DNA of 57,477 nucleotides from Anaerolineales bacterium (GTDB taxonomy: Bacteria; Chloroflexota; Anaerolineae; Anaerolineales; UBA4823). Below are positions 26,663-42,251 of this stretch, one piece after another. A program made the translations under genes and the position numbers. Below the pieces are notes generated by a model. The model ran no database searches, was not told where the DNA came from, and was given only the letters and a program-made list of their open reading frames with translations. The number at the start of each line of letters is the position of its first letter. The first letter of the stretch is position 1. The DNA is taken from positions 1-57,477 of the forward strand of contig DATDRQ010000077.1 of the NCBI GenBank assembly GCA_035291645.1, given 5' to 3'.

Positions 26663-26671
26663 AATATCCGT

Positions 26672-29600
26672 CTATGCATTTTGGGTAACTGGCCGGAGGT
26701 TGTGCACCAGGTTAAGGGCGACCAGCGCTGCCAGCTGGCGGTGGATCAACAGATCGTCTGGCGCCAGATCGGCTGCCCGGCGGAGCATGTTTTCAGCCCC
26801 CGGGTAATCCCGGCTGGCCTTGAGAGCCAGGCCGGCCTGCAGGTAAGGGCGCGGGTCGCGCGGAGAGACCGCCATAGCCTTCTGGTAGGTCTGAAGAGCC
26901 AGGGCTGGCTGCCGGCGGTCGACCTGGGTGGCGCCCAACTCCAGGTAAGTTTCGATCTCGCGAGGCGCCAGCCGGCTGGCTTCGCTCAGGTGGTGAATGG
27001 CCTGGTCGAGCTGTCCGGATTTGCGCAGCAGTCTTCCCAGCTGCAGGTGCAGTTCCGCTTGCTGCTCTGCGGAAATACCCCGCCCCCCGTTGCGCAGACC
27101 GTGTTGGGCAGCCTGGATGGCGGCCTCTGCCTGCCCGGCGCGGGCCAGCGAGTGCGCCAGGAGGGCCAGGATGCTGGCCTCATCTGGGTAACGGTTGACC
27201 AAATCGGCCAATGATTCGAGCGCGGCCTGCTGGCCGCGTGAGCAATCCAGCAAGTTAACCCTTTCGAGCAGGAGGGGCAATGGATCTACAGCCAGCGGGA
27301 TGGCGCGCTCGATGATGTCCAACGCCTCTTCTGAGCAGCCCATTTGCAGCAGGGCTTTCCCGAGCAGGTGAAGCGCCTGGGGTTGGTCCGGCTCGAGTTG
27401 CAGCACCTGTTCGGCGTATTCCTGGGTGGTTTGCGGGTCGCCCTCCTTCAAGGCGATCTCACCCCGCATGAGCATAGGCCCAAGATTGCCTGGAGCCAGG
27501 CCGATGGCGGTTTCGGCGCTCCTGGCAGCCTCGGGGAGGTCACCATTCGCCAGATAAGCCCGGGCCAGCGCCAGGGCGGGCTCCAGGGCAGTCGGGTCGA
27601 TCCGCCGGGCGTGCTCCAAAGCACGCACGGCGCGCCGGGTTTCGCCGTTTTGTAGTAAAGTCTCACCCAGGGCCAGGTGGTGGGCCAAGTGACCCGGTTC
27701 CAGATGGACAGCCTGTTCCAGGTGGTGGATGGCAACAGAGACATCCTCTTGATCGATCTGGATCTGGGCAGCCAGGGCATGCCAGCGCGGCTCCTCCGGC
27801 CACAGGGCCAACGCAGTCTGCAGCGCGTGCAGGCAGGCGGCGGTATCGCCATCCTGGTTGGCTAGGCGTGCTAATAAGATGTGATGGCAGGGTTGGTTTG
27901 GCTGGCGGCTGAGGGCGGCGTTGATGGCAGCCAGCCCATCCCGGACCTGCTCCGGCGTACTGCCCAGAGAGTTCAGCGCCAGAGCAACCTGTACCTGGAC
28001 CTGTGGGTGGAGCGGGGCGCTCCCGGCCTCTGCCTGCGCCATGCGGTAAACCTGCAGGACGTGTTCCAGCTCTCCACAGCGCCGGTGAGCAGCGATAACC
28101 GCTGCGAAGTCATCCGGGTGGGTCGCCAGGTGTTCCAGCGCCTGCAGGCTGTCCCGGCTGTTATGGAAGATCACCTGCCCGCGGGCGGTCCACCGGCGTG
28201 ATTGCATGGAACGGGCGGGTTGGGTTTCACTCGGCGCGTACCGCTGGGCATTCTGGAGAGCTTCTCGGAACTCCTGGTAGGTCTCTTCGGAGAGGGCCTC
28301 CTCACCTGGAGCGTGCACTTCGACCTCCAGATCCTGGCACAGACTCTGGTATTCCGCTCGCAGGGTTAAGGCGCGAACGATCTGCAGGTGCAGGTAAGGC
28401 TCGTGGGGGGCGTATGTCGCCGCGCGCCGGATCAGGTTTAGCCCGATCTCCCATTCTTGCAGGTCGAGGGCTGCCAGACCGGCGCCCAGCAGCGCCGAAC
28501 TATCCATCGCTTGACCGCTAGACTGCACGTCCTGTTCGGACTTCTCTAGAGTCTGGATTGCGACTTGCAGCGTGTTCAGGGCGATGCTGGCATCGCCTCG
28601 CCGGTAAGCCAGGCGCGCCTGCAAGGACAGCACGCGCGCTGCAGACGGGTCGAACTCCATGGCGGCGGTCAGCGCTTCAGCCGCGGCGACTTCTTCCTCC
28701 TGTTCGAGGGCCAGCTCGGCTGCCAGGCAGGCTCCACCTGCCGGGAAATCGTCCGGCAAAGGCAGGGGGATCTGCAGTCGAGCCTGGTCGTTTCGCAGGA
28801 CTGCCCGAGATAATTCTGCCGCGAGCGCCAAAGCCTGGCTGACTTCCCCGGTGACCGGTGCGCCTCTCCAGGCAGCCAGGGCGCGCTCGACATGGTCGAT
28901 GGCTGCCACCAGATCGCCCTGGGAGCGCATCAGCCGGGCGAGGCGAAAATGGGCGGCGGGCTGGTCGGGTTCGATGTTGAGGGCATGTTCCAGGCAGGCC
29001 TGAGCAGCCTGGGGCCGGCCGATCTTGACCAGCAGGTCGGCCCGGTTTAGCTGCAGCTCCCCGTTGTGCGGATCGGACTGAACAGCCCGTTCAAGCAACT
29101 CCAGAGCCTGCTCCGGATTGCCAGACAGGCGGTGGGCATCCGCCAGGTCGCGCAGGATCGCAGGTGGGTTGGTGCCGGACTCGACCAGGGCGCGTTCGAA
29201 TGCGGCGACTGCCGCGCAGGCTTCACCCAGTTCGATCAGCCCTACCCCCGCACGGTGAAGGTCATTCGGATTTACGGATGTATCGCCGATCTGGCGATAA
29301 CTGTTTGTAGCCCCTTGCCGGTCACCGCTGGCATGCTGGATCTGGGCGAGCTTCAGGAGAAGGTCAGAGCGCTTGGGTTCGAGCTGGATTGCCCGGGTGA
29401 GGGTCTTGATCGCTTCCGGCTTCGATCCTAATTCAACCATCTGTCCGGCAAACCAGGCCAGCACGTCGACGTCATCGGGGACCTGCTGGACTGCGCTGTG
29501 GGCTGCTTGGGCGGCCTCCTCAGAAAGGTTAATGGCAGTGTAAGCCTGGGCGAGCACCATGAAGACTTCGGGATCCGGTTTGTCAACCTGAGCGGCGTCG

Positions 29601-32212
29601 TGTAAAGCCGCGACCGTGGTCTCCGGCTGTCCTAACTTTAACGCCGTCCGTCCCAATCCCAAGGACAGGGGGTCTTTCCAGTGTGGGTCGTCTGCCAGAC
29701 CGGCCTCCAGTGCCTGGTAATAGGCCTGCAATGCGCCTGGCAGGTCGCCGCTCTGTTCCAACGCCTGCCCGAGCAGGGCTTGAGCGGTCTTGCGGACGAC
29801 CGGCAGATAGGACCCCTGGTCAATTTTTCGAACCGGTTCGCCATCCAATTCCTCGCCGAGATGGTCAACAACCGGCTCGGTCAATCGCAGCACGCGTTGG
29901 AGCGCTTGGGCGGCTTCTTCCGGCTGTGAACTGACCTTCAACAGGCTCTCGGCGTAGTCCAGGCTGGGATGCGGGTCGTGGGGAGCAGAGTTCACCGCCA
30001 CCGCCAGCGGGCTGAGAGCTGCCTGGGGATCGCCCTGGTCGAGCAGCAGGCGAGCGTAGGCATAAGCCAGTCCTGGGTAAGAAGGGAAATCCAGGAAGGT
30101 GTTCTCGAGAACCTGGCGGGCTTTTTCTGGATGGCCGAGTTGAACCAGGATGCTTCCATAAAGGAGAGCGATGCGAGGCTGGAGAGTAGCGTCCTGTTCG
30201 GCCGGGTTTTGCTTCCCTGCCCGGCCTTTGCCAAGACGGCGGCGGTTGCGCAGGCCCGGTCGCTCGCAGGCCAGTTCGTATGCCTTGCGCAGATTGGTCT
30301 GGGCCTGGGTGACGGCGTCATCCGCCAGGTAGGCCTCCGCCAGGGCCAGGTGGATGGCCGGGTCGTTCGGGACGGCGTGAGAAGCGGCGCTGAGGGTTTC
30401 GGTGGCTTTGGAGGCCTGGCCGCCGCGCTGGTAAGCGCGGGCTAGTGAGAGCCAGGGCTCAGGCTGGTGGGGTGCATGGGTTGTAGCCTGCTGGAAGTGC
30501 TCCATGGCTCCCTGCTCGTCCCCCTGAGCTGCCAGGGCTTCACCAAAGATGGCCTGGGTGAGGCCGTCCTCAGGATTCCGGTCCAGAGCCATCTGACAGG
30601 CTTGAATCGCCCGTTCTGGGTCGCCAGCGTTCAGGCTGCAGCTGGCTAGCGCTCGTAGATCGGAGTCGGTAGGCCAGATCGATTCTTCGGCCGGCGTGAA
30701 GCGCGGCGCCAGTAACTCGCTCCTTTCATGCAATGCAGCCTCCCACTCGCCGGCCCGCTCCAGGCTGGTCGCCAGCAGGCGGCGGTAGGCCGGATCGGCA
30801 GGTTGGAGGGCGACTGCCAGATGAGCGGTATTCACCGCCCCAGTCTCATCGCCTGCCCGCAGATCGGCTAGAGAGAGCGTGGCGAGACGGGCAGCGCTGG
30901 CCGGTTCTAGGCGGCAGGCCAGCGCGGCGGCGCGTTGGGCTTCTTCGAACAGAGACAGCTCCTGGCAGAAGCCGGTCAGGTGAATGAACCAGGGCAGGGC
31001 GCTCTCGATATCCGCTGGAGTGGGGGGTAGGTCGAGAGGCTGGCGATCTTTTTCAGCCAGGTAGGCCAGCGCCTGGCGAGCCGACTGCCGGGCTGAAGAC
31101 CTGTTCCCCGCCCGGTTCGCCTGGTGGGCCAGGATCACCGCCTGGGCTGGGCCGGCTTCCTCCAGGCTGGAGGCGGGCAGCAGGGCAGCGGCATCCTCAA
31201 CCCGCCCGGCCTCGAGCATGCCGGCCAGCAGTCTGGCGGATGGGAGGGCTGTCTGCGGCGCGGAGAGCGCTTCCTGCCAGGCGACCAGGGCTCCATCCAG
31301 GTCTTCTTCTTGGAAGGCTGTGCTGATCTGTGCGGCCAGCTCGGCCTGTAGCTGGCGGGAAATCTTGACCGCTTCGGCGCGGGCTGCGACAGAATGGGAG
31401 GTCTGCCCGGCGATTGCCTGTAAATCCGCCTGCGCTACCAGACCGGTGAGGGCGGCGATCTGAGCGTTTATCCCCACCTCTCCAGCTTCCTGATTTTCTG
31501 GCGGAACTGATAGCACCCGGGTGGCGAGCCTGGCTGCCTGGGATGGGCGGTGGGCTGCCAGCTGCCGGACCAGATCTGCCCCAGCTTGCGGTTCGAGTTT
31601 CTCAATTAATGTGGTAAAAAACCGCTCCTGTTCGGCAGCCGGCAATGGCTGGCACAGGACTGTATTCACCGCCAGCATGCGCAGGGCTGGCTTTTCGCTG
31701 CTGGCGAGCGCCCGTACCAGGGCCTGGCGATCTCCGCAGAGTCCGAATATTATGGTGAAAGATGAGCTCCACTGCGAATAGATCGCCGCCTCACCGCTAT
31801 GGGTCGCCCGGAGGCTGGCGACCGACCCCTCCCAGGAACCGGTCGAGCGGCGCTGGTCATATAGAGCGATCGCCAGCAAGGCCGCCTGGGCCAGGGCTTG
31901 ATCGTCCTCTGCGCCCGCGTACTGGGGGGATTTCTCTTGAGCTTCGAGCGCCTGGAGCGCCTGGTAGCGCAGCTGCGGATCGGGTGGGGCGTCGACTTCC
32001 GGCATGGGCTGGTTTAGCGCCAGGAAAGCCAGGTTGGCGGGCGACCAGGACTGCGGATTGGTTCCCAGGGCCTGCAAGGCGCGCGCGCCGAAGTCTTCGT
32101 CCTGAAGCAGGTCCCAGATGCGGGAGTCCTGGCGCAGAGCGGGGATCACCCAAGGCCAGCTGGCCTCGGGCAGGGCGGATTTCAAAGCGACGATAAATGA
32201 GGTTTGGGCCAT
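26672..32212 (-). CDS. Giant all-TPR repeat protein (1846 aa)
   Basis: A single ORF with continuous A/L/E/Q-rich 34-residue-type repeats (..A...Y..AL...P....A...LG......G....A...) and no recognisable catalytic domain. Its stop is 9 nt before the next ATG. Confidence 0.85.
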   Translation of the reverse strand: MAQTSFIVALKSALPEASWPWVIPALRQDSRIWDLLQDEDFGARALQALGTNPQSWSPANLAFLALNQPMPEVDAPPDPQLRYQALQALEAQEKSPQYAGAEDDQALAQAALLAIALYDQRRSTGSWEGSVASLRATHSGEAAIYSQWSSSFTIIFGLCGDRQALVRALASSEKPALRMLAVNTVLCQPLPAAEQERFFTTLIEKLEPQAGADLVRQLAAHRPSQAARLATRVLSVPPENQEAGEVGINAQIAALTGLVAQADLQAIAGQTSHSVAARAEAVKISRQLQAELAAQISTAFQEEDLDGALVAWQEALSAPQTALPSARLLAGMLEAGRVEDAAALLPASSLEEAGPAQAVILAHQANRAGNRSSARQSARQALAYLAEKDRQPLDLPPTPADIESALPWFIHLTGFCQELSLFEEAQRAAALACRLEPASAARLATLSLADLRAGDETGAVNTAHLAVALQPADPAYRRLLATSLERAGEWEAALHERSELLAPRFTPAEESIWPTDSDLRALASCSLNAGDPERAIQACQMALDRNPEDGLTQAIFGEALAAQGDEQGAMEHFQQATTHAPHQPEPWLSLARAYQRGGQASKATETLSAASHAVPNDPAIHLALAEAYLADDAVTQAQTNLRKAYELACERPGLRNRRRLGKGRAGKQNPAEQDATLQPRIALLYGSILVQLGHPEKARQVLENTFLDFPSYPGLAYAYARLLLDQGDPQAALSPLAVAVNSAPHDPHPSLDYAESLLKVSSQPEEAAQALQRVLRLTEPVVDHLGEELDGEPVRKIDQGSYLPVVRKTAQALLGQALEQSGDLPGALQAYYQALEAGLADDPHWKDPLSLGLGRTALKLGQPETTVAALHDAAQVDKPDPEVFMVLAQAYTAINLSEEAAQAAHSAVQQVPDDVDVLAWFAGQMVELGSKPEAIKTLTRAIQLEPKRSDLLLKLAQIQHASGDRQGATNSYRQIGDTSVNPNDLHRAGVGLIELGEACAAVAAFERALVESGTNPPAILRDLADAHRLSGNPEQALELLERAVQSDPHNGELQLNRADLLVKIGRPQAAQACLEHALNIEPDQPAAHFRLARLMRSQGDLVAAIDHVERALAAWRGAPVTGEVSQALALAAELSRAVLRNDQARLQIPLPLPDDFPAGGACLAAELALEQEEEVAAAEALTAAMEFDPSAARVLSLQARLAYRRGDASIALNTLQVAIQTLEKSEQDVQSSGQAMDSSALLGAGLAALDLQEWEIGLNLIRRAATYAPHEPYLHLQIVRALTLRAEYQSLCQDLEVEVHAPGEEALSEETYQEFREALQNAQRYAPSETQPARSMQSRRWTARGQVIFHNSRDSLQALEHLATHPDDFAAVIAAHRRCGELEHVLQVYRMAQAEAGSAPLHPQVQVQVALALNSLGSTPEQVRDGLAAINAALSRQPNQPCHHILLARLANQDGDTAACLHALQTALALWPEEPRWHALAAQIQIDQEDVSVAIHHLEQAVHLEPGHLAHHLALGETLLQNGETRRAVRALEHARRIDPTALEPALALARAYLANGDLPEAARSAETAIGLAPGNLGPMLMRGEIALKEGDPQTTQEYAEQVLQLEPDQPQALHLLGKALLQMGCSEEALDIIERAIPLAVDPLPLLLERVNLLDCSRGQQAALESLADLVNRYPDEASILALLAHSLARAGQAEAAIQAAQHGLRNGGRGISAEQQAELHLQLGRLLRKSGQLDQAIHHLSEASRLAPREIETYLELGATQVDRRQPALALQTYQKAMAVSPRDPRPYLQAGLALKASRDYPGAENMLRRAADLAPDDLLIHRQLAALVALNLVHNLRPVTQNA

Positions 32213-32269
32213 GCGTTCACCGGTGCCTGAGCAAGATGGGTTTGGAATTTGCAGGATATCGGATGTGGA

Positions 32270-32593
32270 TTAACTGATCCGGATCACCAACCAGCAGGCG
32301 GCGAGCATCAAGATCAGACCCAGGGCGGAGAGAAACACGCCGATCCCGGCCGCAGTCCGCACCAGGTCATTGGTGGCACCGAGCAGAGCCGAGGCGTTGC
32401 CGACCAAACCGGCGACTTCCTCCGCCATCCCCTTACGGGCCAGCTGAGCGGTCTGGTTCGCCAGGCTGCGCACCTCGCGCCCGGCTGAGCGGACCAACAG
32501 GACGAACATGCCGATCGACAGGCTGATCGCGCCGAAGAGGAAGAGGCCGAGGGCCATTGCCAGCTGTACTTCGATGAGCGTGAACGAGGTCAT
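32270..32593 (-). CDS. Small membrane protein (two terminal TM helices plus a central helical segment)
   Basis: 107 aa. Strong SD AAGGAGGAG 3 nt before the ATG. Confidence 0.7.
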   Translation of the reverse strand: MTSFTLIEVQLAMALGLFLFGAISLSIGMFVLLVRSAGREVRSLANQTAQLARKGMAEEVAGLVGNASALLGATNDLVRTAAGIGVFLSALGLILMLAACWLVIRIS

Positions 32594-32606
32594 ATACTCC
32601 TCCTTG

Positions 32607-33374
32607 TTATCGGGAGGCTCCGAGCAATGGAAACTCGCAGTCTACCATCAATCTGCCCGCCTCCGTCAGGGGCCAGGCGCGGGCGGCCTGGGCCAGGTCG
32701 AGGTCTGTCCGCAGATGAGGGGAAATGCCCCTTACCAGGCGTTGAACTTCCGGTCCGGAGAGCAGCCCACTGGACTGGCGGCAGGCGCTCGCCAGAAGCT
32801 CTGTCTGGCTTTGCTGGACCGTGATGCCATCCCCTTTCGTTCCCGCCAACCCGGCAACCTCGATAGGGCGTGCTTCCCTGGATATCGCCGGTCCCAGGCG
32901 GTTCAACAGGTCCAGGATGGAGGTCAGGCTGGTCGTATCGAGGACCACGTAACCAGTCCACCACAAACGTTCTGCGTGGAGGGAGTCCATGAAGGCTGCC
33001 ACAGGGAGGCCGCGCCGGTCGAGGGCGAACTGTTCCTCCAGTAAAGTCTCTCCCGGGACCGGGAAGACGGGCAACAAAGTCACCTCGGGCTTGCCTGGAA
33101 AGAACAGCGCCAGCCAGGCGCTTTCCAGGCGGGGAGAGGCTGCATCCAGGTCATCCACCCCGAGGATCAACCAGCTATTTTGGCCCGTGGTTGGCTGAGG
33201 GACGGATTCCAATCTAACAGAGCCTTCGTTCCCGGCCAGTCGGTTCATCGAGAGCAATGAACGCCCGATGGGGAGGCCGGCGATCAGGCCGAAGACCAGG
33301 AATAGCAGGAACAGCCTGGCATTTGCCCGGCTGTGTTTCTCTCTGTTCATCCACTCGATCCGCCTGTTCACCAT
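32607..33374 (-). CDS. Membrane-anchored, divergent LytR/CpsA/Psr (LCP)-like protein
   Basis: ATG at 33374 (alternative at 33350). N-terminal TM helix. WLILGVDDLDAASPRLESAWLALFFPGKPEVTLLPVFP and YVVLDTTSLTSILDLLNRLG follow the LCP pattern, but the usual S-I-P-R-D block is replaced. Confidence 0.6.
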   Translation of the reverse strand: MVNRRIEWMNREKHSRANARLFLLFLVFGLIAGLPIGRSLLSMNRLAGNEGSVRLESVPQPTTGQNSWLILGVDDLDAASPRLESAWLALFFPGKPEVTLLPVFPVPGETLLEEQFALDRRGLPVAAFMDSLHAERLWWTGYVVLDTTSLTSILDLLNRLGPAISREARPIEVAGLAGTKGDGITVQQSQTELLASACRQSSGLLSGPEVQRLVRGISPHLRTDLDLAQAARAWPLTEAGRLMVDCEFPLLGASR

Positions 33375-33378
33375 TGAT

Positions 33379-33651
33379 CTAGTGACTGAGTAACGCGCTG
33401 AGCAGCGCTGTGAAGAAGCCAATGCTCAACCCGGCAGCCGCCCAGCGTGCCGCCCGAGGCGCGTCCGGCGACCGAAAAAAATTGACAGCCTGCCAGGTCA
33501 TCCGGCTGGCGCTGCTGACCAGCTTCTGCAACAGGGTGGAATCGCTCAACAAATCTATCGCCAGTCGTAAAAAGCCGATCTCGATGCGTGCAGATACCTG
33601 GCGGAAATCAATCGGCGCGTGAAGGAAGGTTGTTTTCATAGGCCGGTTCAA
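33379..33651 (-). CDS. Small protein with a C-terminal TM helix
   Basis: 90 aa from the TTG at 33651, or 86 aa from the ATG at 33639. Packed between neighbours, with a 4-nt overlap or a 9-nt gap upstream and a 4-nt gap downstream. Confidence 0.45.
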   Translation of the reverse strand: MNRPMKTTFLHAPIDFRQVSARIEIGFLRLAIDLLSDSTLLQKLVSSASRMTWQAVNFFRSPDAPRAARWAAAGLSIGFFTALLSALLSH

Positions 33652-33893
33652 CGGGAAGTGGAGACTTTCAGGATCTTGCCCTGGGCGTTGGCTGTCACCC
33701 GGACGATGCGCGGGATGGATTTGCCATTGGAAGCCGTGGCAGTTCCCCGGTAGGTGAGGAGATAGGTCTGGCTCGAACTGCTGGAGTTTATCTGAGAGCC
33801 GGACTGGGTCTGGACTTTTGGCTGAATGCCTGCGACCTCCGGAAACCGGCGGTAGATCTGGGTGGAGATAGACTTCAACGCTTTGGCATCCAT
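33648..33893 (-). CDS. Small soluble protein (PepSY-like pattern), related to the C-terminus of the 935-aa peptidase
   Basis: 81 aa. SD AAGGTG ~10 nt before the ATG, which is 24 nt after the ftsZ stop. Ends RIVRVTANAQGKILKVSTSR, compared with ARLTLDSQGQVIKMVVSR at the end of the 23855..26662 product. Confidence 0.6.
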   Translation of the reverse strand: MDAKALKSISTQIYRRFPEVAGIQPKVQTQSGSQINSSSSSQTYLLTYRGTATASNGKSIPRIVRVTANAQGKILKVSTSR

Positions 33894-33917
33894 GGAGCAG
33901 GTTTCACCTTACGAGGA

Positions 33918-35126
33918 TTATGATAAGGACGCACCGGGTGGCTGGTCTACCTGGCGGGCGCGCCGTCGCAGGAAGGCCGGCACGTCCAGATCGTTGGCGG
34001 CGATGCGTGGCATGCTGTAATTCACCGTTACGGTCGACTGGCTGACAGGCTCCGCTGTGAGTACAGGGGTTGGTGCAGTGGCAGGCTCAGCAGCCAGCAC
34101 CGTTCGCCGGTTCAGCTGGGTGGAAACCCCGGAAAAGACTTCGTCTAGCGTGGGAGCGCCCAGGCCGGTGATGACCAGGATCACCTGGGCGCGGCCTTCC
34201 ATGCGCTCGTCGTGGGTCACGCCGAGTACGATCTCGGTCTGGCTGCCGATCTGGTGGTGCAGGTTAGTCAGCACTTCGCTGATCTCGACCAGGCTCAGGT
34301 CCTTACCACCGGTAAAGTTGGCGATCACCCCGGCGGCTTGTTCGAGCGAGATGCTCTCGAGCAGCGGGTGGTGCAGGGCCTGCTCGATGGCTATGTGTGC
34401 CTTATCCTCTCCATGACCATGACCGATAGACATCAACGCGCCGCCGCCCAGTTTCATCAAGCGCCGAATGTGGGCAAAGTCGACGTTGATCAGGCCGGGT
34501 TCGGTGATCAGCTCGGTGATGCCCTGGACTGCCTGGCGGAGCACGTCGTCGGCCAGGCGGAAAGCCAGGTCCAGAGGCAGGTCGCGCGCGGCGACGTACA
34601 GCAAGCGGTCGTTGGGGATCGAAATGAGCGTATCGGTATGCGGGCGCAGGGTGGATAATCCCTGGGAGGCGTTGCGCTGGCGGCGGCCCATTTCAAATGA
34701 GAAGGGCGTGGTGACGATGGCGATGGTCACTGCACCGACAGAACGGGCGGCGCGGGCGGCGATCGGGATCGAGCCGGTACCGGTGCCGCCGCCCATGCCG
34801 GCGGTCAGGAAGACCATATCGGCCCCTTCCAGGGCTGCGGCGATCTCCTTCTCACTCTCCTCTGCGGCGGCGCGGCCGACCTCAGGGTTACCGCCGGCTC
34901 CCAGCCCGCGTGTGGTGCGTGGGCCGAGCTGGATCCTGACCGGCGCCAGGCTGGTCTGCAAGGCCTGGTAGTCGGAGTTGGCCGCGATGAACTCCACGCC
35001 GTCCAGGCCAAGCTCGATCATGCGATTTATGGCGTTGCTGCCACCCCCACCCAGACCGAGCACTTTGAGTTTCGGCGGGGGAGCTGCGTATATTTCGTTC
35101 GATTTCATCTCGCTCGTTTCGATCAT
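33918..35126 (-). CDS. ftsZ: Cell division tubulin homologue FtsZ
   Basis: 402 aa. GLGGGGSNAINRM, tubulin signature GMGGGTGTGS, C-terminal peptide DLDVPAFLRRR. SD GAGGTGGAGG before the ATG. Confidence 0.95.
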   Translation of the reverse strand: MIETSEMKSNEIYAAPPPKLKVLGLGGGGSNAINRMIELGLDGVEFIAANSDYQALQTSLAPVRIQLGPRTTRGLGAGGNPEVGRAAAEESEKEIAAALEGADMVFLTAGMGGGTGTGSIPIAARAARSVGAVTIAIVTTPFSFEMGRRQRNASQGLSTLRPHTDTLISIPNDRLLYVAARDLPLDLAFRLADDVLRQAVQGITELITEPGLINVDFAHIRRLMKLGGGALMSIGHGHGEDKAHIAIEQALHHPLLESISLEQAAGVIANFTGGKDLSLVEISEVLTNLHHQIGSQTEIVLGVTHDERMEGRAQVILVITGLGAPTLDEVFSGVSTQLNRRTVLAAEPATAPTPVLTAEPVSQSTVTVNYSMPRIAANDLDVPAFLRRRARQVDQPPGASLS

Positions 35127-35213
35127 TGGATACCTCCACCTCTTTTTTTATTCCAACGCTCTACAAATTATTTCGCCGAATCCTTACGCTTGGTCGGGAG
35201 ATCGAGCCCAAAC

Positions 35214-36536
35214 TTATTCAGCCAGGAATGTTGCAATACTTGTGCCATCTCCACCGATCCGTTCGACGTAGCAGCCCGCAGCACGCAGGGCGTTCAGGCT
35301 GTCTTCCGGAAAGTCGTGCTCGTTGCCGACCACGGTAACTCGCTCGGCCAGCAGGGCGTCCTCCAACGAAAATCCCAGGGTCGGGCGAAATTTCTTCAGG
35401 TATGGGCGCACTGCAGTCAGGTGCCAGTCGGAAACCCCCCAGGTATAGGCCGGCAGGAGCAAGTAATGGGCGATCGGGTGGGCGCGCTTGCGGATCGGTG
35501 TGAAGCTGTGACCGGAGGCGGTCTTCTCAAGTCGAGAGGCCTGGTGGCGCAGGGCGATCACCGCCGGGTGATGCCCACCGCCGGCGCGGAACCAGGCCCG
35601 CTTCGCCTGGGGATCGTCCTCCCGGCAGCCCAACAGCGAGAAGTGCCCTGCCAGGACTTCCGCCGGGATTACACAGGACGGCGTTTCATTTGCACCGTGA
35701 GCAGTTTGTTCGGCCTGGACTGAAAGCAGGGAATGGGCGATCTGTTGGGCCTGCTGGACCTGGGCGATCTCGTCTTGAGACGGGTTGAATGCGTCGATTC
35801 CGAACAACAGGATGGGCCGCGTGCTCCCCAGGACCGCCTGGGTAATTGCCAGGTACCAGTCGAAGATGCGGAAGCCGCGCTGGTCCTGGCTGCCTGCCGG
35901 GGTAGCATACGGTCGCGAACCAGGCCAGCTCTCGGGGCCTCCCCGGCCCCAGTCCATGGGTTTCTCGCCTACCCGCGCATAAGCGGAGAGTACCAAGTCA
36001 CCGACCAGATTTTCCGGACTGCGCCGCTGCAGTCCGGCCAGAGCGGAGCACAGAAAGGCAGTATCCCAGTAGTCTCCACCAGGTTCGAGGGGCGGAAAGA
36101 CCGGGTTCAATCCTTCTCCGGCGGCGGTGACCGCCAGGGGGATGAAACGGTCCAGGAAGCGCTCGACCAGCTCGTCCTTGGCCCAGGAGTTTGCCGGCCA
36201 GGCCGATCGCCGGTTTGGCCGGTCGAACAGGATCGCGTAATGAACGCCCCAGTGAGAATAGACTGACAGGAGCATAGACAGCTGGTCGGCGTGAGTAGCG
36301 GGCTCCAACGGCAGGGAGAAATGTAGGACCGGCTCAATGCCAGCTTCCAGAAGACCCACCACGAAGCCCTCCGGGATGGCGCGGTCGTGGGGCGCGTGCA
36401 GGCTTAGCCAGGTGGCGCCCATGGCCTGCAGCTCCGGCAACCAGGTGTGCAGGTCTCCCTGGCGGTAGTGCAGGAAATCCGGGAAGTAATGGAAACCCAG
36501 GCGGGTGTTGAGGGCAGGAGTGTGGATACCGGCCAT
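35214..36536 (-). CDS. Hypothetical protein, possibly (beta/alpha)8 glycoside-hydrolase-like
   Basis: ATG at 36536, 5 nt after GGAGAG (the track ORF starts at the TTG at 36563). 440 aa. An alternating strand/helix pattern with conserved acidic and aromatic residues. The fold assignment is only a guess. Confidence 0.7.
   Translation of the reverse strand: MAGIHTPALNTRLGFHYFPDFLHYRQGDLHTWLPELQAMGATWLSLHAPHDRAIPEGFVVGLLEAGIEPVLHFSLPLEPATHADQLSMLLSVYSHWGVHYAILFDRPNRRSAWPANSWAKDELVERFLDRFIPLAVTAAGEGLNPVFPPLEPGGDYWDTAFLCSALAGLQRRSPENLVGDLVLSAYARVGEKPMDWGRGGPESWPGSRPYATPAGSQDQRGFRIFDWYLAITQAVLGSTRPILLFGIDAFNPSQDEIAQVQQAQQIAHSLLSVQAEQTAHGANETPSCVIPAEVLAGHFSLLGCREDDPQAKRAWFRAGGGHHPAVIALRHQASRLEKTASGHSFTPIRKRAHPIAHYLLLPAYTWGVSDWHLTAVRPYLKKFRPTLGFSLEDALLAERVTVVGNEHDFPEDSLNALRAAGCYVERIGGDGTSIATFLAE
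35232..35247 (-). promoter_or_regulatory. Sigma54 (-24/-12) promoter upstream of ftsZ
   Basis: The minus strand reads TGGCAC-AAGTA-TTGCA, which matches all 11 specified bases of TGGCAC-N5-TTGCW. It lies inside the last codons of the upstream CDS. Predicted TSS ~35222. Confidence 0.7.
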
Positions 36537-36598
36537 GTGTTCTCTCCAGGCAGATCGATGCAAGAGGTGTGCCAGGAGAATTGGCCGGTCGAATTTTT

Positions 36599-37765
36599 CT
36601 AGCGACCCGTGACGATCTCCGGCGGCAGGTGGCCCAGGTCGATGGCAGCCTCGTCGCAGAACAACATGGCGCGCTCGATCACGTTGCGCACCTCGCGCAC
36701 GTTGCCGGGCCAGTCGTACTCCAGCAGTGCCTGCATGGCGCGCGGGGTGATATCGGTGATATTCAGCCCCATGCGCAGGTTATTCTGGCGGATGAATAGC
36801 CCAACCAGCTCGGGAAGGTCCTCTTTGCGCTCTCTTAGAGGGGGGAGGTGCAGGTCAACGACCTTCAACCGGTAGTACAGGTCCTCGCGGAACTCGCCGC
36901 GCTTGACCATTTCCGGCAGGTTGCGATTGGAAGCTGCGATCACCATCACGTCGACCTTGATCAAATTCGTGCCGCCCACCCGGCGGAAGCTGCGTTCCTC
37001 CAAGGCGCGCAACAGTTTGGCCTGGATATCGGTAGGTGTGGAGGCGATCTCGTCCAGGAACAGAATGCCTTCGTTGGCGACCTCCATCAGGCCGGGCTTG
37101 CGCTTCTCGGCGCTGGTGAAAGCGCCGGCCTCGTAGCCAAACAGCTCGGCTTCCAATACCGTGCTCTGGATGGCGGGGCAGCTGACGTCGATAAAAGGCT
37201 TGTCACGGCGCGGCCCCATCTGGTGGATCGCCCGCGCCAGGACTTCCTTGCCGGTGCCGGTCTCCCCAGTGATCAGGACCGAGACCGAGGCAATTGCAGC
37301 CCGCCGGGCGTGGTCGAGCAGGGTCTGCATGGCGGGGCTCTTGCCGGCGACGAAGTCGATCTGTTGTGCGCTGCGGAAATGGTCCAGCTCGCGGCGCATC
37401 GAGACGATCTCACCGGCGCGCTGCAGGGATTGCAGCAGCTGGGGCATATCGATCGGTTTGCCAAGGAAATCGTGCGCCCCATTTTTCATCGCCTCGACCG
37501 CCATGTCCACCTCGCCGAAGGCTGTCATCAGGATGATCGGCGGGCGGTGGTGCATGGAGAGCGTCTCTTCCAGCAGGATGGGACCGTAGCCGTCCTGGAG
37601 CATCACGTCGAGCAGGATGATGTCGGCGCTGCCACGCTGGATCTGCCGGCGGGCTTCAGCCAGGCTGGCGGCGCCGATCACTTCATACCCGTGCGCGCTC
37701 AACAGGCTCTCAATATTCAAGCGGAAGTTCTCCTCATCATCTACCACTAAGATCGTAAAACCCAT
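36599..37765 (-). CDS. Sigma54-dependent response regulator (REC + AAA+), lacking a C-terminal DNA-binding domain
   Basis: 388 aa. REC domain (ILVVDDEE, IILLDVML). Walker A GETGTGKE, sigma54-contact loop GAFTSA, Walker B ILFLDEI, DWPGNVREVRN. The protein ends ~25 aa after that block, with no HTH_8/Fis segment. Confidence 0.9.
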   Translation of the reverse strand: MGFTILVVDDEENFRLNIESLLSAHGYEVIGAASLAEARRQIQRGSADIILLDVMLQDGYGPILLEETLSMHHRPPIILMTAFGEVDMAVEAMKNGAHDFLGKPIDMPQLLQSLQRAGEIVSMRRELDHFRSAQQIDFVAGKSPAMQTLLDHARRAAIASVSVLITGETGTGKEVLARAIHQMGPRRDKPFIDVSCPAIQSTVLEAELFGYEAGAFTSAEKRKPGLMEVANEGILFLDEIASTPTDIQAKLLRALEERSFRRVGGTNLIKVDVMVIAASNRNLPEMVKRGEFREDLYYRLKVVDLHLPPLRERKEDLPELVGLFIRQNNLRMGLNITDITPRAMQALLEYDWPGNVREVRNVIERAMLFCDEAAIDLGHLPPEIVTGR

Positions 37766-37858
37766 TGCTTAAGACCTCCACATGATTATTCTCTTAGATG
37801 TATCGCAGTTCAAGGGGATTACGCCCCCATCTTCCTGCCAACTGCGTAAGTCCTATTT

Positions 37859-39832
37859 CTATTCGTTGGCCTGGATTAAGGGGAATTGCACCTGGAAAAC
37901 CGTCCCTCCGGGGACGCTGGAAACCTGGATATTGCCCTTATGGGCGGTCACGATCCGCTTGGCAATGGCTAATCCCAGACCGGTGCCGTTGCGGTTGGTG
38001 GTGAAGAACGGCTCGAAGATGCGTACCCGGATGTCCTCCGGGATGCCTGGTCCATCATCGATGATATTGACCTCCACATGCTCGCGCGCGCCTACTGTAG
38101 GTCCGGGGCGGACCTGGATCGAAAGGTTTCCACCGGAGGAACTCATCGCTTCGACGGCGTTGCCGATCAGGTTGTTGAAGACCTGTTCCAGATTGCGCAG
38201 GTCACCTAGAATGGTGGTGTTGTGGGCGCTGTTCTTGACCTCCTGGCGCACGTTGAGGCGCGCCAGCCGCGGGCGCCAGCGGTCGACCAGAGCCGGGATA
38301 ATCACAGCCAGCTCCACCGGCTCCGGCCGTGCTTCCGCCGGGCGCGAAAAGGACAGCACGGACTGCATCAGGTGGGTCAGGCGATTGCAGTCCTGGTTGA
38401 GGCGGGTGATCAAATCCTGGTTGGGGTCGTCCTGGGGCAAATTGAGCGCCAGGACCTGCAGACCGGTGCTGATGTTGTTGATCGGGTTGCGTACCTCGTG
38501 AGCGAAGATGGCGGTGATCTCGCCCAGCAAGGCGCGCTGTTCGAGCTGCTGGTTGCGCACCTGGAATTGCTCGTGCTCGCTGAGATCTCGCAAAAGGACG
38601 ATAACGCCTTCCAGGTTATCGCCGACTATCAACGGGAGCATGCGGATACGAGCCGGAAAAGCGGTGCCATCCCGGCGGTGGAGGCGCACGTCGCCCAGGT
38701 TGGGCGTCGGGATGCCCTGCAGGGCAGCCTGCAAGGCCGGGATCAAGTTGTCTGGGCCGATCAGCACATCACCCACCGGTTGGTCGAGCACCTCCCGCGT
38801 GGCGTAGCCGAGGATCTCCTCGGCAGCCGGGTTAAGGTCGACGACCCCCAATTCGCGGGTCAGGGTCAAGATACCGTCCTGGCTGGCACCCCAGACCACC
38901 GCGTTGAAGCGCGCCGCGCGCAGAGCTTCGGTTTCATTATCGACCAGGTTGGAGCGCAGGCTTTCCTGCTCGATCAGGCCGGTGATCGTGGCGGCGACGA
39001 TGCGTAGCAGGGGAAGATGATCCTCGCGCAGCAGCCCACCTGGGTCAGCGCTGATCAGCAACCCGACCACGGCTTCTTCGGCGCCGAGTGGGGCGCTGGC
39101 CAGGTAAGCCAGCTTGGCAGCCCGGGCGGCGCGTTGTAATTCGGTCGCAGCGCGCTTCCCGGGGGCCCAGGGGGTAGCCTGGAGAAGTTGGGGAACCTCT
39201 GCGGCCGGGATCTGCTCGGGGAAAACCTCTGTCTCTGCAGAGGTGGGAGACATGTTGAAGGTGTAGGCGCGCACCAGGCTGGGCTGGTTCGGGCGAGCCA
39301 GGTAGACCGCCAGCAGGCCTGCGCCGGTCAGGCGGTGGCAGGCAGCCAGAGCCAGCTGGACGGCCTGTCCGGTGCTGTGAGCTGTCGCACAGCCGGCCAG
39401 ATGAGTCAGCTCTTCCAGGCGCGCGGCCTGGCGCTGCTGCTCGGCGCGCTGCTGCTGATGGGTGGAAACCGGTTCGAGGGTGACCAGGAACCAGGATTTC
39501 TGCGGGTCGAGCCCTATGTGGGTGGCGATCACCTCGACCGATCCACCCTGGCGCAAGGGCAGGTTCGCCAGCCTGCTGCCTGGGGATAGTTGGGAGGCCG
39601 CCGCGGGATAGGCTGGCTCGAACAGCATATCAGGATCGAGCGCGGTCAGCTCCGCGCGCGTGAATGCGGTCAGCTCGGTTGCCCGCGCGTTGGCGAGCAG
39701 GAAGTGACCGGCAGGCTTATCCCATAACAGGGCAGGCTGGGGCAGCAGGTCGATCAGGGCCCCCAGGTCCGCTAGAGAGGGCTGGCGACGGTTGAGCAGG
39801 GGCAGGCTTGGGATGCGTAACGGTTTGATCAT
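37859..39832 (-). CDS. Soluble sensor histidine kinase (PAS-GAF-PAS-HisKA-HATPase)
   Basis: 657 aa with no TM helices. H-box FAHEVRNPINNI, N-box NLIGNAVEAM, G1 DDGPGIP, G2 GTGLGLAIAK. ATGA overlap with the rpoN stop. Confidence 0.9.
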   Translation of the reverse strand: MIKPLRIPSLPLLNRRQPSLADLGALIDLLPQPALLWDKPAGHFLLANARATELTAFTRAELTALDPDMLFEPAYPAAASQLSPGSRLANLPLRQGGSVEVIATHIGLDPQKSWFLVTLEPVSTHQQQRAEQQRQAARLEELTHLAGCATAHSTGQAVQLALAACHRLTGAGLLAVYLARPNQPSLVRAYTFNMSPTSAETEVFPEQIPAAEVPQLLQATPWAPGKRAATELQRAARAAKLAYLASAPLGAEEAVVGLLISADPGGLLREDHLPLLRIVAATITGLIEQESLRSNLVDNETEALRAARFNAVVWGASQDGILTLTRELGVVDLNPAAEEILGYATREVLDQPVGDVLIGPDNLIPALQAALQGIPTPNLGDVRLHRRDGTAFPARIRMLPLIVGDNLEGVIVLLRDLSEHEQFQVRNQQLEQRALLGEITAIFAHEVRNPINNISTGLQVLALNLPQDDPNQDLITRLNQDCNRLTHLMQSVLSFSRPAEARPEPVELAVIIPALVDRWRPRLARLNVRQEVKNSAHNTTILGDLRNLEQVFNNLIGNAVEAMSSSGGNLSIQVRPGPTVGAREHVEVNIIDDGPGIPEDIRVRIFEPFFTTNRNGTGLGLAIAKRIVTAHKGNIQVSSVPGGTVFQVQFPLIQANE

Positions 39833-41256
39833 GCGGCACCGGCAAGCGAGCCGGCCTGACGAAGGTGGGAGGGCAGGATGCCTTCCATGGCGCGGTATTT
39901 GGCGACCGTTCGCCGGGCTACAGAGAAGCCCAGGTGATTCAATAGATTAACGATCTCGTTGTCGCTCAGGGGGCTGGTCTCCTGATCGATAATCGTTTTC
40001 AAGACCGCACGCACGTGCAGACTGCGGTCGAAGAACTTGGACAGTGGGACGATGTGCCCGCTGGGCAGCTGCACGCTTTTCCCAGAGACGGCCCGCGAGA
40101 TGGTCGATTCGTGCACCTGTAGCTCATCGGCCAGGCTGGCGCGAGTGAGCGGCTGGAGGCATTCGTCTCCGTTCAGGATGAACTCGCGCTGCAGGACGGC
40201 GATGCGGCGCATCAGGCGGACCAGGGTGTTGTTGCGCTGCTGCAGGCACTTGACCAACAGCTCGGCCTGCTCCATGTCTGAGCGCCAGACGTCCGCTTTT
40301 TCGGGGGGCGCCTCGCCCAGCGAGTGGCGGAAAAGCGGGTTGACGCGCAGCAGCCCGGCGAAAGGCGAGATGACTTCTATCATCAATACGGTGCCCGGCC
40401 CATCCTGCAACCAGTTGATCACGACATCGGGGTAGACGTAAACGGAGGGCGTCGCCCCGTGTCCCTGGCGAATATCGCCCCACCAGGCGCGCGCCGGGAA
40501 CGGGTTCAGGTTATCGCCGATGAAAGTGGCGATCTCCTGGGCACGCCGGGCTGGGACACCCAACAGCCGTCCCAACTCGCCGTACTGGTGGCGGCTCATC
40601 AGGTCGAGCCCCTGACGGATAGCCTGGGCAGCCAGCGAGGGCACCGGGCGGGTCTCAGCCAGGACTTCCAGCTGTGCGAGCAGCGCCTCCTGCGGGGATG
40701 TCGATCCCACACCGACCGGTTCCGCCCGCTGAATCTGGTGCAGTACCTTTTCGACCCGTTCCAGAGTTGCGTGGTGGTAGCGGGCGATCTCTCCCAGGGG
40801 GACTTCGAGCAGGCCGTCCTCGTCCAGGTTGGAGAGGATGTGCGCCGCTAAACGCCTGTCCTCGAAGGCCAGTTCGGGAGCGATCTGGCGCAACACGAAG
40901 GTCGGCAGATCCTCGACCGCCTGGGGCAGGTTTTCTTCCGGCTGGTCCATGGGATCGGTCCGGCGGGAAGGGTAGAAATCCTGGCGGGGGGAGACGAACA
41001 CAATCGGCTGGTCGAGCCCGGCTGCGTGGCTGGCGGCGCAGCGCGGGCAGGCGCTGGATTCAGGAAAGGCCATCCCGCAGCCGGGGCAGCGGCGTGTGTC
41101 GCGCAGCTCCAGGGCCGGGTTTTTCGCCAGGGCGGCCTCGATCTTTTGGTCCAGCTCGGCTGCCGAGAGCTCCAGCAAGGCCATGGTTTGAGCCAGATGG
41201 GCAGTGGTCAGGGGGCGAAGAGCGGTTGTGTGGCGAAGGTGTGTGGATTGGAACAT
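39829..41256 (-). CDS. rpoN: RNA polymerase sigma-54 factor
   Basis: ATG at 41256 (the track ORF starts further upstream). Region I LTTAHLAQTMALLELSAAELDQKIEAALAKNPALE. RpoN box ARRTVAKYR near the C-terminus. A CPGC...CPRC segment follows region I. Confidence 0.92.
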   Translation of the reverse strand: MFQSTHLRHTTALRPLTTAHLAQTMALLELSAAELDQKIEAALAKNPALELRDTRRCPGCGMAFPESSACPRCAASHAAGLDQPIVFVSPRQDFYPSRRTDPMDQPEENLPQAVEDLPTFVLRQIAPELAFEDRRLAAHILSNLDEDGLLEVPLGEIARYHHATLERVEKVLHQIQRAEPVGVGSTSPQEALLAQLEVLAETRPVPSLAAQAIRQGLDLMSRHQYGELGRLLGVPARRAQEIATFIGDNLNPFPARAWWGDIRQGHGATPSVYVYPDVVINWLQDGPGTVLMIEVISPFAGLLRVNPLFRHSLGEAPPEKADVWRSDMEQAELLVKCLQQRNNTLVRLMRRIAVLQREFILNGDECLQPLTRASLADELQVHESTISRAVSGKSVQLPSGHIVPLSKFFDRSLHVRAVLKTIIDQETSPLSDNEIVNLLNHLGFSVARRTVAKYRAMEGILPSHLRQAGSLAGAA

Positions 41257-41312
41257 AAGGTTAACCCAGGGAATTGGAATGGATAGGCAAGAAAACAGTG
41301 TCCATACCTGGT

Positions 41313-41328
41313 TGCAAGATTTGTGCCC
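41313..41328 (-). promoter_or_regulatory. Sigma54 (-24/-12) promoter-like motif upstream of rpoN
   Basis: The minus strand reads GGGCAC-AAATC-TTGCA, 10 of 11 consensus bases with correct GG-N10-GC spacing. The -12 GC lies 58 nt before the rpoN ATG. Over GGCACAAnTnTTGCAAC it is identical to the ftsZ site at 15 of 17 positions. Confidence 0.6.
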
Positions 41329-41494
41329 GCTAAACACGCGTATTATAAGTCGATTAACCCCCAGAATCGATTGGCTGACAGTTTTGTCAGCTTACTTCAG
41401 GACGCTTGAGCTTATAGGTCTAGTCTAGAAATACCGCTGTGCTCACCGGAATGTATCGGTGTTCTTCGCCACTGATTCTGTGACCAGGCTAATC

Positions 41495-41995
41495 CTAGGG
41501 CGAATTCGGCGGCGGGGCGACCTGCACCATCGTCGTGCTGCCGTCGGGGTTGGTCAGGATGACGGCAATATTGGTTGCGCCTGCCCGAGGAACCAACACA
41601 TGACCACTGCAGCTGCCGACCCACTGGTCGGCGACGCCCAGATGCGGGTAGAGGGTACAGTCGGGGGGCGCCGTCTGGGTCTCGGTATCGATCGGCTGGT
41701 CGGCGATGCGCCAGCCCGCCATGCGCCACTGGTCGGGTAAAAGCTCGGTCGAGGCGACGAACAGGTTGCCGTCGAAGGCGACCATGCCCTCGGGTGATCC
41801 ACCTGGCTGAGAGACATCGGGAGCCGCAGGGTCGGCCGGTTGGTCGTTGCCCGGATTGTAAATCGCCGGGGAGACGCCGCCCCCGGAGCCGGAGGGGGTC
41901 ATCGGGCTGTTACCGCCATCCGGGGTGCAGGCAGCCAGCGCCAGGGATAGCAGGGCGAGAGAGAGCATTATGAGGGTTTCAGGTATTTTTTGCAT
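41495..41995 (-). CDS. Small secreted lipoprotein, function unknown
   Basis: ATG at 41995, 8 nt after GGAGG. Signal peptide with lipobox LAAC. Confidence 0.7.
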   Translation of the reverse strand: MQKIPETLIMLSLALLSLALAACTPDGGNSPMTPSGSGGGVSPAIYNPGNDQPADPAAPDVSQPGGSPEGMVAFDGNLFVASTELLPDQWRMAGWRIADQPIDTETQTAPPDCTLYPHLGVADQWVGSCSGHVLVPRAGATNIAVILTNPDGSTTMVQVAPPPNSP

Positions 41996-42077
41996 CACCC
42001 CGGCCTCCACGAACTGAGGATGAAGGGATCAGGTCAAGACTTAGCTAAATGGATGCAAGAAGCAGGCCAGAGGGATC

Positions 42078-42103
42078 AAAAAAGCCCGCTGTGGCGGGCT
42101 TTT
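42078..42103 (-). terminator. Intrinsic terminator downstream of tRNA-Arg
   Basis: AGCCCGC, a 4-nt loop, GCGGGCT, flanked by A6 and T4. On the minus strand the hairpin is followed by TTTTTT. Confidence 0.65.
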
Positions 42104-42106
42104 GGC

Positions 42107-42181
42107 TGGTACCCCCACCGCGACTCGAACGCGGGTTTCTACCTCCGGAGGGTAGCGCTCTATCCACTGAGCTATGGGGGC
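42107..42181 (-). tRNA. tRNA-Arg (anticodon CCG), CCA encoded
   Basis: The reverse complement folds as a cloverleaf. Acceptor GCCCCCA/TGGGGGT (pair 1-72 is G-U), D-arm GCTC/GAGC, anticodon stem CTACC/GGTAG with loop CU-CCG-GA, T-arm CCGCG-TTCGAGT-CGCGG, then ACCA. Confidence 0.9.
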
Positions 42182-42251
42182 CTGGGTCGAATTTTACCAC
42201 ATTCAGGCTTATAGTCTCATGGTCTGATGGTCATATAGGAAATCGATCAGA

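Follow-up and report, generated by a model that had tools for sequence, protein, structure and literature searches.

A conserved sigma-54-type site ahead of the rpoN, kinase and activator genes of an Anaerolineales bacterium is consistent with positive autoregulation of rpoN

In most descriptions, sigma-54 genes are expressed constitutively, and to our knowledge self-activated rpoN genes are limited to a few nitrogen-fixation systems. The nifU2-rpoN superoperon of Rhodobacter capsulatus combines a weak constitutive promoter with a promoter activated by NifA and RpoN (Cullen et al. 1994, as excerpted in PMC6925177), and rpoN is also self-activated in the rhizobial prxS-rpoN2 operons (PMC3538637), so this kind of loop is already known. 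The locus described here resembles these systems in that rpoN would be transcribed from a sigma-54 promoter with positive feedback; a weak constitutive promoter may likewise supply basal sigma-54, for which our locus has a candidate -10 hexamer lacking a good -35. In R. capsulatus, activation relies on NifA, a DNA-binding protein of nitrogen fixation whose gene lies elsewhere, whereas the activator encoded here lacks a DNA-binding domain and belongs to the operon itself. Furthermore, the sigma-54 promoter of R. capsulatus lies ahead of an upstream nif gene, while the candidate promoter described here lies directly ahead of rpoN, is conserved across a clade of Chloroflexota, and is accompanied by similar sites at ftsZ and envelope-type genes that would be co-regulated.

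Activators without a DNA-binding domain have been described in Chlamydia (CtcC) and in Helicobacter and Campylobacter (FlgR) (PMC3162934, PMC7482065), and AtoC has been reported as the closest homolog of CtcC (PMC7482065); AtoC is also the best NCBIfam match of the activator studied here. The CtcB/CtcC and FlgS/FlgR pairs share with our locus an activator composed of receiver (REC) and AAA+ domains without a helix-turn-helix, a soluble kinase, and presumably, by analogy, a sigma-54 holoenzyme contacted from solution. Neither co-transcription with rpoN nor a sigma-54 promoter ahead of rpoN is described for these pairs (PMC7482065, PMC3162934), and autoregulation of Chlamydia CtcB/CtcC is not mentioned in PMC7482065. 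Their targets are type III secretion, membrane, or flagellar genes, in contrast to the ftsZ and envelope-type genes found here. A further parallel is provided by glmY, where sigma-54 represses an overlapping sigma-70 promoter, as reported for several E. coli promoters (PMC3045617, PMC4551910). As would be the case here, both promoter types at glmY share DNA, sigma-70 provides the basal level, sigma-54 acts as a repressor, and different lineages keep different versions of the arrangement. At glmY, the activator GlrR recognises sites located upstream, and a small RNA is produced, whereas the product here is sigma-54 itself; moreover, the rpoN promoters of most relatives of our locus appear to share the two promoter types hexamer for hexamer, with the -35 supplied either by TTGGCA of the -24 element or by TTGCAA of the -12 element, while the elements of the present locus do not overlap. 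A 2011 survey recorded sigma-54 in only 'some Chloroflexi' and did not find cell division enriched in the genomic context of sigma-54 (PMC3162934). Our full-text literature search for Anaerolineae with sigma-54 retrieved nothing relevant, and no description of ftsZ under enhancer-independent sigma-54 control was found. What differs here from the known systems is the single operon behind the site, the activator devoid of a DNA-binding domain, the hexamer-sharing dual promoters, the conservation in all examined loci, and the link with ftsZ.

The analysed stretch, hereafter the window, comprises 57,477 nucleotides. Its homologs assign it to the Anaerolineales of the phylum Chloroflexota, and the following features make up the core of the locus:

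41313..41328, minus strand: candidate sigma-54 (-24/-12) promoter of the rpoN operon, GGGCAC-AAATC-TTGCA; 23.0 bits; conserved in 88/88 loci
39829..41256, minus strand: rpoN, sigma-54, 475 aa; Pfam AID, CBD, and DBD; RpoN box; CxxC-N9-CxxC insertion
37859..39832, minus strand: histidine kinase, 657 aa, soluble; GAF-PAS-HisKA-HATPase; start overlaps the rpoN stop by 4 nt
36599..37765, minus strand: response-regulator sigma-54 activator, 388 aa; REC, AAA+, and lid; GAFTSA loop

The site in front of rpoN (GGGCACAAATCTTGCA, minus strand 41328->41313) is located on the same strand as rpoN within an intergenic region of 238 nt. Its GG (41327-41326) and GC (41315-41314) are separated by 10 nt, which is the canonical -24/-12 spacing, and it agrees with TGGCAC-N5-TTGCW at 10 of 11 bases; the core is matched exactly, and the base preceding GG is a G where the consensus has T. 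The distance from C41314 to A41256 of the rpoN ATG is 58 nt. All of these properties, i.e., the motif, the 10/11 match, the spacing, and the distance to the ATG, had been put forward in the preliminary description together with a TATAAT at 41347->41342, and each was verified in the sequence. The predicted sigma-54 transcription start lies near 41302, which would leave about 46 nt of leader, in which no clear Shine-Dalgarno sequence was seen.

When the full 11-base consensus was searched with at most one mismatch, four matches were obtained in the window against 2.04 expected, and 12 of 100 shuffled sequences also reached four, so this criterion is not significant by itself. The exact core GGCAC-N5-TTGCA was present three times against 0.15 expected, a 20-fold enrichment, and three copies were reached in 0/100 shuffles. 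All three cores are on the minus strand, and they are situated ahead of rpoN, of an ORF of 440 aa, and of ftsZ. On the weight matrix of 23 columns, constructed from 31 sites of 14 loci with the window excluded, the rpoN site scored the 23.0 bits given above; across 50 shuffles of the window, the top-scoring position reached 11.8 bits on average and 21.5 bits at most. The rpoN site GGCACAAATCTTGCAAC and the ftsZ site GGCACAAGTATTGCAAC are the same at 15 of 17 positions, as had been noticed beforehand; the special meaning then attached to this identity does not hold, because the extended consensus of the clade, TGGCA(C/T)(A/G)...CTTGCAAC, accounts for the likeness, which was therefore rejected as a sign of a particular rpoN-ftsZ link.

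Orthologous loci for comparison were collected from one genome scan, from look-ups of named homologs, and from one metagenome scan (N-terminal alignment). The pattern of the genome scan was the universal RpoN-box peptide, which mostly returned distant phyla, 9 of the 80 loci (L001-L008, L010) being of the Anaerolineae type. A sense-strand site scoring 19.6-33.6 bits was found no more than 260 nt upstream of rpoN, with start codons estimated in some loci, in all 88 of the 88 loci that had enough upstream sequence; the motif proposed for the window is thus present in the rpoN upstream regions of its orthologs. About 75 of these 88 loci are metagenomic and were unused for the matrix, and one of them (L089) is the window's own sequence. 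The site-bearing loci span RpoN identities from 45 to 100%, and their flanks have fully diverged; as the loci are phylogenetically related, the counts do not represent independent events, although the flanks are nevertheless saturated with change. Antisense controls at the rpoN fronts mostly remained below 10 bits. In the motif-anchored alignment, the rpoN site is the sole conserved island of the intergenic region, with 1.6-1.9 bits of information at GGCA and CTTGCA and less than 0.5 bit over the 80 nt upstream, and the same alignment revealed no conserved upstream activating sequence in those 80 nt.

In 897 kb of loci, 156 matches of at least 18 bits were recorded, 151 of which were at five gene fronts. 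The counts for these fronts, followed by those for the kinase and activator genes, were:

rpoN front: 95 matches; 88/88 loci
440-aa gene front: 23 matches; 23/23 loci
ftsZ front: 18 matches; 18/18 loci
107-aa membrane gene front: 12 matches; 12/21 loci
lipoprotein gene front: 3 matches; 2/7 loci
kinase gene front: 0 matches; 0/76 loci
activator gene front: 0 matches; 0/60 loci

Three loci (L087, L088, and L169) have a divergently oriented gene upstream of rpoN and still carry the site; read-through is impossible there, and rpoN therefore needs its own promoter. The rpoN loci of more distant Chloroflexota (L009 and L011) have neither such a site nor kinase and activator neighbours, so the arrangement is specific to this clade.

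RpoN matched PF00309 with 29.6 bits (cut-off 23.8) as well as PF04963 and PF04552 and bears the RpoN box ARRTVAKYR, while its score on the NCBIfam equivalog TIGR02395 was 256, slightly under the cut-off of 277, which indicates a divergent RpoN lineage. The histidine kinase has no predicted transmembrane segment. The activator matched PF00072 and PF00158 (E = 1.5e-65), with the phospho-acceptor D53 in an LLDV context, and its sigma-54 contact loop reads GAFTSA; among the orthologs, GAFTGA was counted 26 times, GAFTSA 17 times, and GSFTGA 3 times. No HTH_8 match was obtained for the activator; the protein stops after the AAA lid at residue 388, and the NtrC and AtoC models cover it only to approximately position 385 of 461-463. 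The DNA-binding domain is also missing in 47 full-length orthologs, which measure 387-405 aa.

It had been suggested earlier that sigma-54, its kinase, and its activator are all transcribed from the one promoter, and the organization of the genes agrees with this. Besides the 4-nt overlap of rpoN and the kinase gene, the gene junctions are tight across the relatives, internal sigma-54 sites were found in 0/76 loci ahead of the kinase and in 0/60 ahead of the activator, and terminator-like sites were no more common than in shuffled sequences, with none at the gene boundaries within the cluster. A single operon of rpoN, kinase, and activator behind the rpoN-front site would fit these data. Within the 93-nt gap between the kinase and activator genes of the window, a sigma-70-like sequence, TTGAAC-17-AATAAT (37785-37813, minus strand), was observed; it is not conserved because the corresponding gaps of the relatives are much shorter, and it might allow some independent basal expression of the window's activator.

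The sequences around the rpoN sites also contain candidate housekeeping elements. In the window, the relevant feature is the following:

41342..41347, minus strand: TATAAT, candidate sigma-70 -10, 20 nt upstream of GG

This hexamer had been proposed as a source of basal sigma-70 transcription. The proposal agrees with a pattern found throughout the clade, since a nearby sigma-70 -10 hexamer accompanies about 80 of the 85 distinct rpoN promoters, but the copy in the window has no recognisable -35, the best candidate being TCGATT with 3 of 6 bases. A sigma-70 scanner called nothing on the rpoN upstream region of the window, and the TATAAT thus draws its support from the comparative evidence. Two arrangements account for most relatives. 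In type A (41/85; e.g., L088, L097, and L103), TATAAT starts 21-22 nt after GG, and the -24 element (T/G)TGGCA, 17 nt upstream, takes the place of the -35, whereas in type B (24/85; e.g., L001, L003, and L087), TATACT starts 32-33 nt after GG, and the -12 element TTGCA(A/C) takes this place with a spacer of 16-17 nt. Accordingly, in 65 of the 85 related rpoN promoters the -24 (TTGGCA) or the -12 (TTGCAA) would double as a sigma-70 -35. Among the 20 remaining promoters, seven show a perfect TTGACA-16/17-GATAAT immediately upstream. A further six, among them the window and its closest relatives L081, L090, L082/L091, and L083, carry TATAAT at -19 to -22 and lack a good -35. In L004 and L005, the sequences TGGTATAAT and TGGTATACT represent an extended -10 fused to the -24 element. 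At the type A and type B offsets, no -10 hexamer was present in the three other promoter classes (0/21, 0/17, and 0/12). The sequences point to a rule of the clade whereby rpoN alone in the regulon pairs a sigma-54 promoter with a housekeeping one, and the TATAAT of the window would fit this rule. Hexamer sharing is absent from the window, which has TATGGA at +21 and CGGGCA where the -35 would be, and its sigma-54/sigma-70 pairing is weak and non-overlapping.

The other exact cores and the genes behind them are arranged downstream of the activator gene as follows:

36559..36574, minus strand: candidate sigma-54 promoter of the 440-aa gene, TGGCAC-ACCTC-TTGCA; 23.4 bits; 23/23 loci
35214..36536, minus strand: conserved hypothetical protein, 440 aa, predicted cytoplasmic TIM barrel
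35232..35247, minus strand: candidate sigma-54 promoter of ftsZ, TGGCAC-AAGTA-TTGCA; 27.6 bits; 18/18 loci
33918..35126, minus strand: ftsZ, 402 aa; Pfam Tubulin and FtsZ_C; C-terminal peptide DLDVPAFLRRR
23855..33893, minus strand: closely packed genes after ftsZ, six ORFs

The site of the 440-aa gene begins 24 nt past the activator stop codon. The 440-aa protein has more than 1800 homologs and showed no match in Pfam, NCBIfam, or PDB sequence searches. Its AlphaFold2 model (pLDDT 79) gave Foldseek TM scores of about 0.45 to GH39/GH20 enzymes and aldolases, and the protein is accordingly predicted from the model to be a cytoplasmic TIM barrel weakly resembling glycoside hydrolases; no function was assigned because the structure matches generic TIM barrels only. 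FtsZ scored 376 on TIGR00065 (cut-off 295). The ftsZ site is located inside the 3' end of the 440-aa gene, where it coincides with the codons D-G-T-S-I-A-T of the conserved C-terminal peptide GDGTSIAT. In 15 of 17 distinct sequences the site is in this frame, and all 15 use GGC for Gly, NTT for Ile/Leu/Val, and GCA for Ala, while amino acids and adjacent third positions vary. The two other sequences, L086 and L087, keep the ftsZ motif in another frame, and in L086 the stop codon falls within the motif. This codon usage reveals that the ftsZ site is selected at the DNA level, a clear instance in which a promoter restricts the choice of codons.

The six ORFs after ftsZ encode products of 81 aa and 90 aa, a 271-aa membrane protein, a 107-aa membrane protein, an 1846-aa TPR protein, and a 935-aa TPR/peptidase C25-like protein, and they are probably co-transcribed with ftsZ. 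In distant relatives, the pair formed by the 107-aa and TPR genes comes right after the activator gene, behind its own sigma-54 site. For instance, L002-L006 and L008 (Anaerolineaceae, Bellilinea, Leptolinea) have the activator gene followed by a sigma-54 site, the 107-aa membrane protein gene, and the gene for the giant TPR protein, and the position after the activator lacks ftsZ, the small ORFs, and the 440-aa gene. The layout points to an older core module that either received the ftsZ block later or lost it, and the 107-aa protein and the giant TPR protein are the most widely conserved target of the regulon. In L170, the 440-aa gene and ftsZ are far from rpoN and both sites are retained.

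Taken together, we consider it likely that the site at 41313..41328 is a working sigma-54 promoter of the three-gene operon, providing positive autoregulation that is started by a sigma-70 bootstrap. Sigma-54 holoenzyme would occupy GG(41327/6)...GC(41315/4) as a closed complex, an intracellular signal would lead the kinase to phosphorylate the activator, and the activator would open the complex from solution, as has been proposed for CtcC and FlgR (PMC3162934, PMC7482065), and with no enhancer, so that transcription would begin near 41302. The products of the operon would be the three proteins required for this opening step, which would constitute positive autoregulation. Since the activator lacks a DNA-binding domain and the alignment revealed no upstream activating sequence that is conserved, any closed complex should be a substrate; an activator that cannot tell promoters apart must also activate its own operon, which amounts to positive feedback. 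The basal level starting the loop would come from the sigma-70-type element, i.e., TATAAT 41347-41342 in the window and, in most relatives, a -10 hexamer for which the -24 or -12 element acts as the -35. At overlapping promoters (types A and B), inactive sigma-54 holoenzyme would occlude the sigma-70 promoter, producing a self-limited floor in the OFF state. The same activator would serve the 440-aa gene, ftsZ and the genes downstream of it, and, in relatives, the 107-aa and TPR genes, and the loop would therefore set the level of a small cell-division/envelope regulon. The sequences themselves establish the motif, the gene identities, the operon layout, the conservation and specificity of the site, and the accompanying -10 elements; that the promoter is active and depends on the activator, that occlusion takes place, and what the loop does in the cell are what we infer from them.

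Two alternatives would deny transcription by sigma-54 from this site. A chance match or functionless relic, with rpoN transcription originating at the TATAAT or reading through from the upstream lipoprotein gene, would be in line with the frequency of 10/11 matches in 57 kb, which is within chance when taken alone, but it is contradicted by the 20-fold enrichment of the exact core, the persistence of the site in 88/88 loci down to 45% RpoN identity amid randomised flanks, and its retention where the upstream gene is divergent; we regard this explanation as close to negligible. The site could also act as an operator only, where an inert closed complex would block the sigma-70 promoter and exert negative autoregulation of rpoN with no sigma-54 transcription. 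The 65/85 relatives whose sigma-70 -10 promoters share a hexamer with the sigma-54 site speak in favour of such a role, and occlusion of overlapping sigma-70 promoters by sigma-54 is documented (PMC4551910, PMC3045617). Occlusion is equally compatible with a working promoter, however, so that the absence of activation is the only part of this proposal that competes with it. Moreover, the site shares its orientation and sequence with the regulon's remaining promoters, all of them devoid of a sigma-70 element, and its distance to the start codon is similar to theirs; an activator with neither an enhancer nor a DNA-binding domain has no means of telling closed complexes apart; and the -10 element of the window and of its nearest relatives lies outside the site. 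An exclusively repressive function is consequently improbable in our view.

If the site is a working promoter, as we favour, the behaviour of the loop is a separate matter. The ftsZ gene is normally essential, and as its promoter appears to be of the sigma-54 type, the system would have to be active in dividing cells; this promoter type was found at ftsZ in 18/18 loci, and the region checked there contained no sigma-70 element. Such activity would agree with a graded amplifier or homeostat operating throughout growth, and the overlapping sigma-70 promoters would add both a floor and self-limitation. Positive feedback through a cooperative hexameric ATPase could in principle be bistable, however, and a second ftsZ or further ftsZ promoters are possible. 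Because ftsZ seems to rely on this type of promoter, the loop is probably active while cells grow, and a lasting OFF state during growth seems unlikely; we lean towards a graded loop, ranked likelier than a bistable or developmental switch.

A broader interpretation is offered as a tentative proposal, which we consider possible rather than probable. According to it, sigma-54 in this clade would not be a general nitrogen or stress factor; it would belong to a self-contained and self-amplifying module consisting of sigma-54, a soluble GAF-PAS kinase, an activator devoid of a DNA-binding domain, and one promoter type, which would chiefly set the expression of ftsZ and division/envelope genes, and the dual-mode rpoN promoter would pass from a self-limited sigma-70 floor built from sigma-54 hexamers to positive feedback by the phosphorylated activator. 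If this were true, an intracellular signal would gate septation in these filamentous bacteria.

In every related locus examined, the entire activation machinery lies behind its own promoter type. It would form a compact natural sigma factor feedback loop with a built-in sigma-70 bootstrap, and ftsZ would be placed under enhancer-independent sigma-54 control. The locus offers a testable way into the control of cell division in Anaerolineae, which are abundant yet poorly studied, and several conserved proteins of unknown function gain a regulatory context. In addition, the 88 rpoN sites and more than 50 others define a sigma-54 consensus of the clade for genome-wide prediction of the regulon.

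Some further elements of the cluster are worth describing. RpoN carries a clade-specific CxxC-N9-CxxC sequence (41038-41088, minus strand; residues 57-73) between region I and the core-binding domain, in which C57, C60, C70, and C73 are invariant in 25/25 aligned homologs. It looks like a zinc-ribbon insertion, and we know of no such insertion in sigma-54. The 107-aa membrane protein (32270-32593, minus strand), for which Pfam gives no match, starts with MTSFTLIEV and recalls the N-terminal motif of type IV pilins and pseudopilins. Ahead of rpoN, a perfect palindrome, GCTGACA-aaac-TGTCAGC (41374-41391, minus strand), is situated about 56 nt upstream of the GG. It occurs once in the window, which is not beyond chance, and is kept only in L081, the nearest relative. 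A role as a general enhancer was discarded on these grounds and because the activator has no domain for DNA binding; the palindrome may be an operator for some factor or a stem-loop. RNA folding of the 238-nt intergenic region gave z = -0.54, which indicates no leader structure, and an Rfam scan of 33000-43000 detected a tRNA as the sole RNA element.

The upstream flank of the operon contains the following features:

41495..42010, minus strand: predicted lipoprotein, 171 aa; next gene upstream of rpoN, same strand
42054..42069, minus strand: probable, weaker fourth sigma-54 site, TGGCCT-GCTTC-TTGCA; 20.2 bits, within the shuffle range
42107..42181, minus strand: tRNA-Arg(CCG), upstream boundary of the cluster; hairpin and T-run

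Orthologs of the lipoprotein are encoded in L081, L082, L085, and L086, and variants of the site in front of its gene are present in L081 (TGGCAG), L085, and L086. The site at 42054..42069, which lies just past the terminator-like hairpin of the tRNA-Arg gene, is a probable sigma-54 site of the lipoprotein gene, and read-through from this gene could add to rpoN transcription. The hairpin and T-run of the tRNA gene were seen by eye and were uncalled by the terminator scanner. The extended -10 promoter of tRNA-Arg(CCG), TGGTAAAAT (42191-42220, minus strand), is conserved in all relatives and constitutes a useful reference for the housekeeping promoters of the clade.
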